A stretch of DNA of 63,119 nt, counting the filler, from Pelomyxa schiedti (taxonomy: Eukaryota; Protista; Evosea): NCBI GenBank assembly GCA_020536535.1. It is 9 parts of 9 records of this genome, joined end to end, with 100 filler letters (N's around TTAATTAATTAA, not from the genome) between each part and the next. Parts side by side here need not be neighbours in the genome. Positions count along the whole stretch, not along the records: positions 27,924 to 56,024 come from JAHLWZ010000266.1; 8 more parts are not named here. One strand, 5' to 3'. Both the position numbers and the translations under genes were made by a program. The notes beneath the pieces were generated by a model. It saw only the letters and a program-made list of their open reading frames with translations. It was not told where the DNA came from and did not search any database. The first letter of the stretch is position 1. Every line of letters begins with the position of its first letter. Of the stretch, positions 31,051-37,264 are shown in pieces.

Positions 31051-34000
31051 ATGCAGGAGCCAGGTAATAACCAACGGGCTGTGGTGCTCCGTTCTTCAGG
31101 CACTTCGGTACTCTCTTGTACAACAAAAAATTACTAAAGAAATTGATGAACTCCTATTTGACAGTAACTAGGTTGTTGACTTTGAACCGTGTGCTGTGTT
31201 GGTATCTGTGAGGGTCGCGGGCTTTTTGGCTGAGACTGAGGTCACTTGTCAATTCACAAGGCCCATCGAGGACGCTCTTCCTGATGACATCGAGTGCTAC
31301 ATGGTTGGTTTTTTTATTGAAATTTTCCCTGCTGGACTAGTTGTGCTGCCTTGTGTTTTTGTAACTGATTCCTTCCTCCCTTTGAGATGTTTCCTCTTGG
31401 TGAGAGGTCCACAGTTTGTGGATATGCAGTTGATGTCGATGGTACAATCTTTGTGCATCATTTTTTTCAAGACGAAACACAACTGACCACTTTCTTCTAA
31501 AGGCAACCTAGTTGAAGCTGTTGTTGTACCAAAAGACAAAGCAAGGGCCGCCTTTGAATCTGAGGTCCGTGAAAAAAGGGCAGCTGCAATTGCTGAACAA
31601 GTGGAGGGAAATATTTTCCGTGTTAGAATACACCCTTTTCGACATGGAATGAGCCGGACAATAAAACTTGTTATTACAGAGGCTTTAGAACCATCACTGT
31701 CAAGTGCTACTTCTTACACACACACGTTTTCAGTTCCCTTGCACGTTTTGTCGAATTTACACCTATATTCCTTCAAGGTATGTCGACAAACGTCACCTCA
31801 AACTTCAATACCCTTTCCAGGCCGTTGTTGCAACTGGGCAGCACACTCTTACCCCCGTTGTTTATTTTGACAGTATACCAGCGTCTATGCATCTAGTACC
31901 ATCGGGAAAAGAAAGTATTTCTGTCCGGGAATACATTTTAGAAACCGAACTCCGAGACACACACCCTCCAAAGGCTACTTTAATAGAACTCATTCACCCT
32001 ACTGCGAGTGATGTTTACGAAGTTATCTCAGAGGCCGGCAGTAATGCTGTGTTCTTTTGTGCACAAGTGATGGATAGCATTAAATTTCGCAATCCAGGGC
32101 TCACATTGAAGCGACCTGAACAAGTTTTACTTTTGTGGGATACATCTCGAAGTAGCTCTGACTTCGACAAGACACGGTAAGCTCTTCACCTCTTCGGACT
32201 TATATTCCAATGTCCCAAGGGAATTTGGGGTTATCAAGTCCCTGGAGTCACTGGGGGCTATACCTGTTACAGTTACAACTTTCGCAGACCAAATCGTCGA
32301 TGAAAAGGAATTTACTGCTTCCCAGTACAAAGAAATTCTCGAATATATCTCCGGCACAGTAAAGGATGGTGCCACAAATATTGGGAGTGCTTGTTTAAGA
32401 GCCAGTGTTTCAAAGAAAAATACTTTGTGTTTACTTTTCAGTGATGGCTTTAGTAACTGGGGCAAAAATGTATGCATCATCTGCTCAATTACTGCTTAGA
32501 GTAGGCCAGAAAGAAGAAGAAAAATGTCAGTTTCCTAATCCTATATTCACTTTGACTTCTTCGGCACAAGCGAATTTTTCCCTTCTCAAGGTACTATCAA
32601 GGAGAGGAGATAATTGTTGATCACATTTAGCGTATTGCAATACATAGTGGTGCCTTTTTCATCAACTTGAATAACTCAAAGTACGCTGTAGTACAGTTTG
32701 TTTGTTACCTAATATTCTTTCCAGATCTGCCCTTGATGAAATTTTACAACCTTCCATGCATTTTATGTACGCCGCAGACTCATCTGGGAGAAAAATGCCC
32801 GACTTCTTTCCATCTACACCCAGAATTCTTTCATTTCCGTTCCCCATTGTTGGGTCCACTTCTCCAAGCACAGAAGATCGTATTTTTCTTTCATTCTCTA
32901 TTCTCTTCAGAATTAATGTAACGCTGCTTTCTAGAACAAATCTTTTTGCATTTCCAGTCTTCAAGTCGTGAAGAGCTAGTCACTCGTTTAGAAATTTCAA
33001 AGAATCCTACAAATGTAACATCTGGTGTCGGTATATAGACTTAGAAGGTTTTTCTGCCCTGAACTTTTAAGTTGCGAGGTTTTGGGCCCAGCAACATGTT
33101 GAAGAGCTTCAGCTTTTTTACGAACAAAATGATGTAATTGACAAAAAAGTTTTACATTTAGCACGGACATATCAGTATTTCGTAAAAACTACCTGAACGG
33201 AACTAATGACAAATAGTTTTGTTACTGCCAATGCTTCTCTGATTATTTTGGAGACTCTCGAGCAGGTTTTTTCCTCAATTTTACTATTAGTTTCATTTTA
33301 GTTTTTTAGTATCTTAGGCATGGAATTGAACCGCCAGAAACATTACCCAACATCCGGCGTCAATACTTAGTTCAAATTGCTTTAACACAGGTACTGCATG
33401 ATATAAACTTTCAACTTCTCATTGCAAAAGGCCGAACTTGAGAAAAAAACTACTCTTAAAGGGGAAAAGGTATTTGACATGTGGAAGCGCAGGATTTTCT
33501 GGTGGAATTCTAACTATGATGGAAAAACCCTTGTACACTTACTTTTTTTACTTCTGGTCTCTCATTTACATTCATAAAGCAACCACAGTCACGATATTTC
33601 CTGAAGTTTGCAAGTGATACCTCCAGGTGCAATACAGATGAAGATTTTATCCTTGAAATGAAATCTCTCTCAATGAGAGGCCCTGACGAAACATCCCCAA
33701 TCGGAGACGTATTAGATACGTCAAGAGTGCCAACTTTTTCTACAGTTTCTTACCCGATCATTTTGTTTTTTTAACCCACTCTGATTCAGGGAAATAATGA
33801 AGTGTCAGAGACAATCCGCGCTGTGGTGATAGGTACTGTACATAGCAAAACTGTCAACTGTAACTAAGTAGTTTAATTAATCAGATGCTGGTCATGGATT
33901 TATGAAATGTGGTTTTTCTGGAAAGGAAACACCAAGCTCAGTGTTTCCAACTATTGTTGGGAGACCTGGATACCATTCTCACTCACCGAAGGATAGGTGA

Positions 34001-37000
34001 GCCTGGGTTCTCCCAAATATTCTCATATCGCACAGCTTTGTTGGTCATGACGTTTACTCAGTGTATCACGAGTATTTATCCATCAAATCTCCATTTTCAA
34101 ATGGAATGGTAAATGTATGTGCATAATGAACACTTAGCTAGCACCTCACACCACAAGAATTGGGACGATATGGAAAAAATCTGGCACTATACTTTTTACA
34201 ATGAACTACGTGTAGCCCCAGAAGGTTTTTAGAACAAGTTTCTTGATCTAAAGGAGATTGCAGAAACTCCAACTCTACTGACTGAAACACCCTTAAATCC
34301 AAAAATGAACCGAGAAAAAACTTGTCAACTCATGTTTGAGACTTTCAACACACCCGCCATATACCAGACTCCACAGCCACCTCTTTCTGTGTGCACATTT
34401 CAAGAACTTTTTCTTTCCCTTATGAAAATAGCTTTACACCACTGGGCGCACCACTGGAATGGTTCTGGACATTGGCGACGATACCTTTTATGCGTCACCT
34501 GTTTATGAAGCGTACACCCTTCCTCATGCAGTACAAAAATGTAGTCTGGCTGGTACACATATCACTGACTACTTGACCACTCTTTTGGCAGCAAATGGCT
34601 CCCCCACATGTTGAAAATAAATATGAAACTAATTTAGAACTAACTTTTCACTACAAGTCAAGCGAACTATACTAGAAGATATAAAAGAAAGTCTTTGCTT
34701 TGTTGCGCTTGATCCTCAGCAGCCTCAACTATCTTCCGATGATGAGTCATCGATTTTTACTCTCCCTGATGGTCAGACACTGTCTTTGCAAAACACTCGT
34801 TTTGAAGCCCCTGAGCTTTTATTTAACCCTTCCTTGGGAGGCCTACCAGCTGAATTGTCCACTCCAACGCTTTTGGAGACGGCCATTTTAAAATGTGATG
34901 CTGACATTAGGCGATCTCTGTGGGGAAATATCGTTTTAGCAGGCGGTTCCACTCTGCTGAATGGGTTCCAGGACCGACTTCTCAAAGTACGTTGTTCAGT
35001 CTGCACCAAGCCAATTCCTACACTTTTTTAGGAGATGAAAGCATTGGCACCTACATCGACAGTTGTGAAGGTCATTGCCAAACCTGAGCGCCGATACAAC
35101 GCCTGGATCGGGGGTTCCATTCTTTCAGCTCTGGAATCTTTTCAGCAGTCTTGGACCAGCAAAGAAGAGTTCGTACCAGTGCCAAACTTTGGGCTCCTCC
35201 CTTAAGAATATCTTTAGGTATGACGAATCAGGACCAGCGATTGTACATAGGAAATGCTTTGGTGGCGATACTGTGGTGTCACCTATTGCAAGTGTCCCAA
35301 ATCCCGTTCCAAATTCCTTCTTTCTAATATATGCAAGTTTTCATCGCATTCTATTTTCACCCCCAGTAATCAAGATCTTAAAGCTGCCAAGCCAAGCTCA
35401 GGAGAATTACTACAAGAAACTGTTATTCTCCCGTCAGTTCAAAGCACTGGTTGTGTGGCCCCTACCTCGTCGGATGACTTCGATAGTTCAATTTCTCCCA
35501 TCCCTTTTCCCGAAGTTGCACCACTGTCGTCACCTAAATTATCCACCACCCTTCCCTCAAAACCCTTACCCCCGCCATCTGTATTGGCACTGGATATTAC
35601 AAGAGGGTGCCTGGAGCAGGCTGATGACGATGCACTGGAGGACACCAATAATAATAATAACAACAATAATGTAATACCAAAAGAAGAGGCTCCACCCGAG
35701 GCACCGCCAGCACTGCCTAAAAAAGGGGGAAAAGGAAAAAAGATAGTGGCTGCCTCGTCCAGATTACACACTCCCTGGGATATTCAGCCTATTTTGTTAA
35801 CAGAAAAAAAGCCCTCGCGTCGCACACCAATATGCCTATCTCGACTCAAATTCACCCCCTCTTCCACTTTGGCATCAACAGAGCAGTTGAAAAATGACGC
35901 AGCTTCATTACACTCCTGTGAGAGTGGTATGTCTTTTCCCATATCTCAATTGAAATAACCGTTCCTAGATGATATATACACCGAATTCCTGTCAATAATT
36001 TCTGCTCGGCCTTCACTAAGATATCAAACCATCTTTGTGCTACATGCAGCAATTGTTGCTTTCCATCGTAACAATGATACTGCCGCTAAAAGAATCTTAA
36101 GCAATCTTGTTGAATCGACACACGATGATGTAAGTATACTGCGTGCAGTGTCTTCAGTGCTAATCCAATTTCATCACAATGAGTACTTCCAAAACTCTCC
36201 CGGTTTAATATTCGGCACTTACTGTATGTAGCATTGCGTTGTATTTGCTTGAAAAAGTTCTCCAACTACGGCCAGAACAGCCACAAGTATGTTTATACTA
36301 CATCTCCAGCTCTCACCTCGCATCAGTCTTACCGTGATCTGGCCTTGGTATTAGTAGAAACTGAAGATGAAACCACTCGAAATGGTCTTTGCTCCGGTCG
36401 CTAATCCGTCACTGACTGTTATCAGATAATCTCAAGAGAGCAATTGAGCTCCTGAATGAGGTTATAGAAAAGACATGGGAGACCCGATTCGACCAGATAG
36501 AAATTGTTGCTCTGATGGTACAACATAACTTACAGTCCAGTCGGTTCTCAAATAACTACCAGGAAATCAATTCTATTCATAGCCACCTTGCGTCAACTGG
36601 GTAAGAGCAGATATTTTCTGTTGTGGCATAACAAAGTTCAATGCAGTGCATTAGCGGAAATACGACCTAATATCGATGCCAGGATGCTGTCAGATGTACG
36701 CATTGATCTCAGGGTTGTTCTTAGTTGGAACACTGACAACACCGGTAACAAATCACTTAAAGTTTCCGCTTGTCCAACACGGCCTAGATGTTGAACTTAT
36801 CATTACCGAGCCTTCTACTGATGTTTGCAACAGTTTTAATAACCACACAAGGTCTGGAGGTACTTCAGAGTGGTTTTCAAATTTTAGATAACAAGAAACA
36901 CACCTAAGGGCTGATGTCAAGGAATTTTTCATCAGGAATGGGGCCAACTGAGTGGCTTGTATGTAAATATTCAGACTCATTCCACTAGCTTCCATTCTTT

Positions 37001-37264
37001 ATTCAGGTTAAGAAGGCACGGCCGGGACTGTATACTATACAAGTAAAACTTCACCATAGCCCAAATCCAAGGTAACAGTAGATAACCCAACCGAGATTGC
37101 ATCTTACTTGCTTCCCAAGTTTAACCACTGTCTGTTCTGTCAGTGTTTTTGCTGATTACTGTGACCCCAAATTGCAGACGTGCATTTCCAGGTGTACGGC
37201 ATTTGTCTCTCAATCTGATCCACTTTCTACCGTTGGGACTGTTTTAGTTCCTGCTGGGAATTAG
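31051..37264 (+). CDS. VIT-vWA-[actin]-TPR-DUF2135/YfaP-like multidomain protein, many exons; start uncertain
   Basis: [57 protein letters not shown]. v[19 protein letters not shown]. Then [25 protein letters not shown], an actin domain, [51 protein letters not shown]; stop at 37264. Confidence 0.8.
33812..35260 (+). other. Full-length divergent actin (ARP-like) domain inside the larger CDS
   Basis: [112 protein letters not shown] with no stop after CF. Confidence 0.93.

Follow-up and report, generated by a model that had tools for sequence, protein, structure and literature searches.

Plant NLRs carry integrated decoys, and alpha-2-macroglobulin (A2M) carries a bait region. The plasma protein ITIH4 combines an N-terminal half of VIT, hybrid and vWA domains, bearing an adhesion site that depends on metal ions (MIDAS), with a long variable linker and a C-terminal domain; according to PMC7793589, in which the comparison with A2M is also drawn, ITIH4 has a protease-susceptible region at residues 633-713 whose cleavage leads to a non-covalent, MIDAS-dependent inhibitory complex. 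An intracellular VIT-vWA core is common to Dictyostelium Vwa1, human VWA5A and PARP4, for which no TPR-DUF2135 half or cargo linker has been described, and a bacterial VIT-vWA stress gene of 708 amino acids (aa) appears in bioRxiv 10.64898/2026.05.23.727404. Here we describe a gene of the anaerobic amoeba Pelomyxa schiedti, encoding KAH3764700.1, that lies within a window of 63,119 nucleotides (i.e., the whole stretch of DNA analyzed, nine parts of assembly GCA_020536535.1 joined end to end with filler) and whose predicted product connects a VIT-vWA N half to a TPR-DUF2135-like C half through a linker holding a complete actin domain. By sequence, the protein belongs to an uncharacterized VIT-vWA-TPR-DUF2135 family, and with its actin insert it stands out most among the members of a small group of amoebal proteins whose linkers likely read as a decoy array. 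In literature searches that left most subscription papers and supplements outside, we found no paper naming DUF2135 and no description of a VIT-vWA-TPR-DUF2135-actin architecture or of a decoy array of this kind.

Manual reading of the three frames gave one frame from ATG 31051 to TAG 37264 with 35 exons, 34 introns (33 GT-AG and one GC-AG), 1540 residues and a single terminal stop, and the resulting protein agrees at all positions with KAH3764700.1 (P0001 below), which a search with the VIT exon only had retrieved. The public annotation also treats the locus as one gene, yet its name, "actin family [Pelomyxa schiedti]," covers the actin part only. Junctions in the DNA read GKTL/QPQ (intron 33533-33579), FST/GNN (33745-33789) and VVI/DAG (33833-33884), and the end of actin, VHRKCF, reads into GGDTVV without a stop (35258-35260 onward). 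An alternative intron at 32918-32957 also keeps the frame; that at 32880-32934 was preferred by homology and matches the annotation. Transcript data came from three RNA runs (X1, X2 and X3) of one sample in one study, together with one DNA run (X4), as contigs rather than single molecules. Joints for 17 of the 34 introns were seen in spliced contigs, and an 18th (36745-36787) is implied by a 2349-nt RNA contig whose length equals the exon sum from 34270 to 37304 (summed by hand). This contig begins inside actin and proceeds through KCF-GG and the GC-AG intron over the full C half, and the joint at that intron (35287>35338) is present in X1, X2 and X3. A second RNA contig starts at 33632 in the pre-actin linker and passes three joints (e.g., 33744>33790 and 33830>33883) into actin; positions 34214-34269 lie outside all listed RNA pieces. 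Spliced RNA thus links the linker with actin, and actin with the C half, and the original prediction of an in-frame actin insertion holds in one 35-exon frame, its 3' join observed in RNA and its 5' join predicted; RNA cover reaches from the linker to the 3' end apart from 34214-34269, with 31051-33631 uncovered. Its remark that no initiator Met is present is correct for actin itself but not for the region upstream, where in-frame Mets occur at 33658 and 33673, 35 and 30 residues before actin. In the DNA run, one contig holds the whole stretch with no listed difference, and X4 is possibly the source of the window itself.

The 5' half bears on a different account of the locus, an annotation artefact in which a separate VIT-vWA gene is followed by an expressed gene starting from Met 33658 or 33673. 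No RNA contig was found over 30800-33631, and 14 introns, including the 5' join, are predicted only; moreover, the intron at 34115-34157 is retained in the sole RNA contig over it (X2 record 4, 34034-34213, ungapped). This intron contains in-frame stops, and the homology to actin returns once it is taken out. Loss of 5' ends is frequent in single-cell libraries, and the missing contig cover of the 5' half is no evidence for separate genes. We predict the join of the VIT/vWA half to the linker from frame and homology and regard it as well supported, for four reasons that also speak against the artefact. If intron 33533-33579 were retained, as in a separate N-half gene, a stop would follow at 33574-33576, which is 56 bases short of the point where RNA cover begins (33632). 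Donor scores of the 14 predicted 5' introns (3.6-7.3) resemble those of confirmed introns (mean 4.9), although several acceptors score lower. The N and C halves fall in the same clade, as described below, and Trinity transcripts of Cavostelium and Phalansterium hold both scaffold halves within one open reading frame (ORF).

The layout of the protein is given in Table 1. Of the domains that the original prediction expected a profile scan to find, VIT and a full actin were recovered, vWA was matched weakly (VWA_CoxE, E 0.003) and Pfam DUF2135 (PF09906) did not match P0001 at E 0.05. The vWA and DUF2135 labels are used because the protein aligns with homologs that do match those Pfam profiles, and the C half aligns throughout with PF09906-positive homologs and trees with them. 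The MIDAS of the vWA domain is intact (D280-x-S282-x-S284, T344 and D367), and its DxSxS residues (D280, S282 and S284) are invariant in 67 of 67 aligned rows and present in all cargo proteins described below. By alignment, residues 426-614 are the end of an ITIH-like N half: the best non-TPR PDB match of the family profile is ITIH4, residues 26-593 (E 2e-20), which ends before the linker, and the profile also matches PARP4 (E 4e-11). The linker of the family scaffold sits where ITIH4 has its protease-susceptible bait region. An AlphaFold2 model of the homolog P0007 has a predicted TM-score of 0.84, with low confidence confined to the N-terminus and the linker (608-694), and its best structural match is ITIH1 (E 4.5e-24). 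The model suggests a single body in which the two scaffold halves pack against each other and the linker loops out.

There are also differences from these systems. Unlike ITIH4 of plasma, the Pelomyxa protein is predicted to be cytosolic, its C half consists of TPR and DUF2135-like parts, identity is ~15%, and the family linker holds folded actin or arrays of host motifs; trapping in the family is proposed by analogy. Because inspection revealed no signal-peptide-like stretch before the VIT domain, because no Pfam match to the ITIH C-terminal domain was obtained in P0001, and because the PDB match stops before the linker, the protein is judged not to be an ITIH proper; nor is it, from its domain matches, an NLR or a conventional actin. 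Integrated-decoy NLRs and A2M appear to share the same idea, with targeted host parts or a variable bait on a conserved chassis, shuffled among paralogs, but neither Pfam nor NCBIfam detected an NB-ARC/NACHT, LRR, macroglobulin, thioester, signaling or enzyme domain in P0001. Neither Pfam nor PDB yielded a match to the post-actin linker.

Of 7985 proteins scored in a search with the N half, 64 matched; apart from P0001, the two leading matches are amoebozoan, and the others include bacterial VIT-DUF2135 proteins, with which the Pelomyxa scaffold groups rather than with Vwa1, VWA5A or PARP4. The Phalansterium protein, searched against 1.84 billion representatives, matched 5877 at E up to 0.001. 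Bacteria make up 89-100% of each of the ten atlas clusters shown (lead-level scores 0.84-0.85). Judged by these matches the scaffold is mainly bacterial, as had been supposed, and its horizontal transfer is likely. Bacterial VIT-vWA-TPR-DUF2135 proteins (PF08487 with PF09906) have the same scaffold over both halves (N half, 23-30% identity) and the same variable linker, sometimes with an inserted CarboxypepD_reg, TonB plug, zinc ribbon or SLBB domain; they differ in their short linkers and in the absence of introns and of eukaryotic cargo. A hydrophobic N-terminal extension is present in 129 of 145 bacterial members by a crude score that does not cleanly separate eukaryotic ones. The linker between the WW helix and the TPRs has a median of 113.5 aa (74-305, n=64), and of 144 aa in the 128 of 150 listed homologs having both anchors, the two longest belonging to cargo proteins. 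Actin was found in none of the 150 listed of the 5877 matches, and when metagenome contigs, prokaryote genomes and viral contigs were scanned with DNA patterns, no relative was confirmed. The idea of a capture peculiar to Pelomyxa must be given up for the scaffold, which is, by the homologs recovered, common to Variosea and hence old in amoebae; the same architecture thus exists in amoebal relatives as regards the scaffold, whereas the actin insert occurs in none of those listed.

Five full-length proteins of this kind carry cargo in the linker, namely P0001, P0005 (Cavostelium), P0071 (Phalansterium), P0250 (KAH3731978.1, a Pelomyxa paralog) and P0324, with linkers of 648, 893, 1117, 814 and 904 aa, respectively (i.e., ~810-1120 in the four relatives of P0001). 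The linker of P0005 matches an importin IBB (E 2e-6), a syntaxin-like SNARE (E 1e-6), V-SNARE (E 5e-4), a ubiquitin-like domain (E 8e-5) and the histone H3 tail (E 0.017) and has two P-stalk-like acidic motifs; that of P0071 matches ubiquitin (E 3e-22), ribosomal P-stalk tails (E 5e-6) and talin F0 (E 1e-5); that of P0250 matches synaptobrevin (E 1e-11) and a GTPase of the Ras family (E 3e-34) that looks Rab-like by eye; and that of P0324 matches, weakly, WH2 (E 0.004) and a P-stalk tail (E 0.03). Bacterial effectors and toxins commonly target such cargo types (SNARE, Rab, ubiquitin and others). Of the linkers that lie outside this clade of cargo proteins, the 11 longest showed none of these cargo domains; the named domains in them are mostly CarboxypepD_reg or TonB plug. 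The two Pelomyxa paralogs, P0001 and P0250, have no detected cargo in common. In unrooted trees of 30 hand-picked rows of 217 (partial P0309 omitted, long branches flagged), the five cargo proteins group together as a single clade, both for the N half (98/97) and for the C half (100/99). Balamuthia P0242, with a 128-aa linker, is sister to the cargo clade in FastTree and outside it in IQ-TREE, and was not counted as a member. Several smaller features were noted in these linkers: P0005 and P0250 have a similar short motif (ELRPGQDL and EIRPGQDM); an ESCRT-III MIM-like motif was seen by eye in P0005, and VCA-like or RS-rich stretches in P0071, P0324 and partial P0309. The source name of P0250 is "TonB-dependent receptor," and by eye its P-loop-like motif follows the rest of the GTPase domain.

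It seems to us fairly probable that the linker is bait, whether it serves a trap or a sensor. As to the first of these, we judge close to an even chance the analogy-based proposal that the protein is a cytosolic ITIH4-like bait-and-trap, with the degenerate actin as a decoy in the variable linker. Bacterial members would be secreted, their disordered linker of ~110-145 aa serving as a general bait for proteases; amoebae would have kept the scaffold in the cytosol and filled the linker with look-alikes of proteins attacked by microbial proteases and modifying enzymes. An enzyme engaging or cutting the bait would then be clamped via the Mg-MIDAS of the vWA domain, with the TPR and C-terminal domain perhaps serving as a lid, and would be kept away from real actin. 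The bait idea, raised in the original prediction with actin-targeting toxins in mind, is strengthened because orthologs carry other host parts in the same linker and because the scaffold resembles ITIH4.

The inserted actin is complete but eroded, and unevenly so. Residues 676-1040 match Pfam Actin (PF00022) over profile positions 2-410 of 410 (E 3e-115). The reference was the conventional actin of Pelomyxa (the first 375 residues of P0099, in its own numbering), to which 364 of 374 positions align and 199 (53%) are identical. Identities by subdomain are 99/144, 12/37, 52/104 and 36/89 for subdomains 1 to 4; the D-loop keeps 1 of 11 residues, with four deleted, and the H-plug 5 of 13. In the nucleotide pocket and hydrolysis set, 13 of 25 residues are kept (D11, K18, Q137, D154 and D157 are retained; S14H, G158D and H161Y are altered). 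We predict that this actin very likely cannot polymerize. Because the barbed-end cleft (13/20 kept) and subdomain 1 are better preserved than the pointed face (8/20) and subdomain 2, as expected of a one-sided binder, the insert might instead serve as a tether or hub: linker parts would bind partners native to the cell (actin-binding proteins, Arp2/3, SNARE partners, importin beta), thereby placing the scaffold on the cytoskeleton or membranes, and the actin might cap a filament end. The WH2 and talin-like parts of relatives fit this explanation, and the Dictyostelium actin fusion filactin, described in PMC2441452, is a precedent for a cellular actin fusion. We nevertheless consider it unlikely, in that one and the same ortholog may combine parts from the nucleus (IBB, H3 tail), the ribosome (P-stalk) and vesicles (SNARE) with ubiquitin, a mixture indicating no single place, no detected cargo is common to the Pelomyxa paralogs, the unrelated cargo of relatives is left unexplained, and both actin termini are fused to long linkers.

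Several observations count against the bait-and-trap proposal. The inserted actin has R177K, E270P, H73N and T351S (T148, K50 and F352 are retained). R177, E270, H73, T351 and D-loop residues we take to be toxin or modification sites of actin, and only 4 of 15 such listed sites are kept, whereas five other actins, fused or conventional, retain 10-14 of 15. Such sites should persist in a good decoy for the enzymes concerned, and the loss of R177 and E270 in particular weakens the notion of bait for classical ADP-ribosylating or cross-linking enzymes; the original bait idea thus gained from the cargo of relatives and the likeness to ITIH4 and lost ground for classical actin-modifying toxins. ITIH4 works outside the cell and on proteases, whereas many actin-attacking enzymes do not cut. 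The linker motifs could instead recruit partners native to the cell. Some of the matches to cargo are weak (H3 tail, WH2 and one P-stalk), the cargo clade comprises five full-length members on long branches, and the model of P0250 is an unverified annotation. To these must be added the 14 introns that are predicted only and the retained intron, both discussed above. Finally, PMC10539598 has Vwa1 acting with an F-box protein in Dictyostelium development, not in defense.

The erosion could also mean that the actin is a neutral passenger in decay, within a linker that does no more than put up with insertions. In a quick rather than careful tree search, the inserted actin was the longest of 43 branches (1.12) and remained unplaced, so that of the separate phylogenies called for originally, those of the scaffold put both halves in one amoebal clade and that of actin gave a long branch; its 53% identity to conventional actin lies below that of all 32 other fused actins (61-84%). 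Set against this, the actin reading frame stays open through 365 codons and 8 introns and the core residues D11, K18, Q137, D154 and D157 persist, and for the annotation artefact the shared clade, the transcript-derived orthologs, the stop short of the next gene's RNA and the intron scores argue otherwise; passenger and artefact taken together strike us as distinctly improbable. The donor evidence from shared letters points both ways: A138P is present in 15 of 32 fused actins versus 0 of 16 conventional ones, T155I, T162A, S281A and S300A in 18 of 32 versus 0 of 16, and at L122 and T323 the insert agrees with the actin of Pelomyxa itself.

Fusions of actin are in themselves a recurrent feature of protists. 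A search for long actin proteins gave 295 matches, and among the 120 listed (counted by hand) at least 29 have Sec23-trunk/vWA domains and at least eight have TPR with or without NACHT, which calls for revising the earlier statement that actins are almost always stand-alone proteins; many single fusions among the 120 look like annotation joins. Neither anchor of the VIT-vWA-TPR-DUF2135 scaffold is present in the 119 other long actin proteins listed. Filactin, primate POTE-actin, Sec23/vWA-actin and NACHT-TPR-actin all contain a whole actin domain in a larger polypeptide, and the insert shares several letters with protist fused actins, but its scaffold differs and it is more eroded, above all in the D-loop. 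The Sec23-trunk/vWA-actin proteins form a widespread protist family, often with WW (e.g., P0125, P0147, P0179 and P0132), in which Q137 is mostly lost; one of them, P0147 (KAH3761125.1), is from Pelomyxa. Another actin-like gene is represented by X1 record 3, a transcript aligned at 35218-35260 that reads past KCF without a stop, and a further actin paralog in X2 and X4 ends in KCV-stop.

C-terminal actin also follows NACHT-TPR in P0124, P0142, P0151, P0168 and P0172 (Balamuthia, Pyxidicula, Copromyxa and two JGI records); by their domain matches these are NLR-like proteins with an integrated actin. That actin rides on NACHT-TPR proteins of amoebae supports bait and recalls the integrated decoys of NLRs. 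It also fits a decoy sensor, in which a cut or modified linker would switch the vWA domain on and feed a signal or degradation route. The cargo evidence is the same as for the trap, the head-to-head neighbor resembles a GBP-like GTPase with a microbial-type PARG (weak matches), and PMC10539598 proposes that Vwa1 is autoinhibited and works with an E3 ligase subunit. We regard a sensor as improbable, since no signaling or enzyme domain was detected in the protein and the closest characterized bait-bearing relative, ITIH4, inhibits directly according to PMC7793589.

Amoebae live with and feed on bacteria, and to our knowledge little is known about their intracellular defenses. In P. schiedti itself, prokaryotes lie free in the cytosol, as reported in PMC10579272. 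With a confidence somewhat short of even, we suggest that these proteins form an undescribed amoebal cell-autonomous immune family, in which an ITIH4-like trap derived from bacteria was moved to the cytosol and its bait loop became a shuffled catalog of host targets; equally tentatively, that catalog would comprise actin, Rab, SNAREs, ubiquitin, importin, the histone H3 tail, the ribosomal P-stalk and WH2/Arp2/3 activators. If this is true, a conserved chassis with swappable host mimics would unite the bait trap of ITIH4 and A2M with the integrated decoy in a third lineage; the large uncharacterized bacterial family (5877 representatives matched) would have its first testable function; amoebal linkers, read across species, would amount to a list of effector targets; and any enzyme taking the bait would meet a general inhibitor in the vWA clamp. 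Even without a bait role, a whole and likely non-polymerizing actin in a vWA scaffold would be a new actin-fusion architecture.

Table 1. Features of the actin-bearing gene and of other genes in the window (positions count along the window).
Feature	Position	Strand	Basis or remark
Whole gene	31051..37264	+	35 exons, 1540 aa; KAH3764700.1 (Pelomyxa schiedti)
VIT domain, residues 30-138	31202..31672	+	Pfam PF08487, E 2e-17, above cut-off; introns predicted
vWA domain, ~residues 274-425	32121..32743	+	motifs WDTSRS, DGAT and FSDG at 279, 341 and 365
Hybrid strands, helical bundle, VIT part 2, long helix to WW motif (residues 426-614)	32744..33532	+	alignments
47-nt GT-AG intron, N half to linker, predicted	33533..33579	+	only fusion junction without RNA support
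Pre-actin linker, residues 615-675	33580..33807	+	RNA contig from 33632
Actin domain, complete but degenerate, residues 676-1040, 8 internal introns	33808..35260	+	Pfam PF00022; RNA joints
43-nt intron with in-frame stops	34115..34157	+	retained in its sole covering RNA contig
Post-actin linker, Pro/Ser/acidic low-complexity, residues 1041-1245	35261..35925	+	includes 50-nt GC-AG intron 35288-35337
TPR-like helices, ~residues 1246-1397	35969..36600	+	weak NCBIfam TPR-type matches 1273-1366; alignment; RNA contig X1 record 2
C-terminal beta-rich domain with DUF2135-homologous segment, and stop codon	36696..37264	+	alignment to PF09906-bearing homologs; RNA to 37304
WW	1386-2276
Ras-like	2931-3431
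Caspase-like	12432-13298
Glycine-rich	17776-19068
F-box	26040-26528
LIM	42972-43505
BTB	46505-48138
Bromodomain	53031-54572

Runs of N within 19135-59339 (eight pairs of 44-base runs 12 bases apart and three runs of 100), which probably reflect masking and gaps in the scaffold sequence, include none within the gene. The other genes of the window (75 ORFs scanned, 1386-54572) are of ordinary eukaryotic types. The head-to-head neighbor, on the minus strand at 29269-30946, lies ~100 bases upstream of the start codon and shows a P-loop with weak matches to GBP/URGCP-like GTPases (E 0.002-0.006), followed by three collinear TIGR02452/microbial-type PARG pieces (E 2e-5 to 0.012); if it is one gene, it might encode a GTPase-macrodomain protein, possibly sharing a promoter with the putative bait gene.

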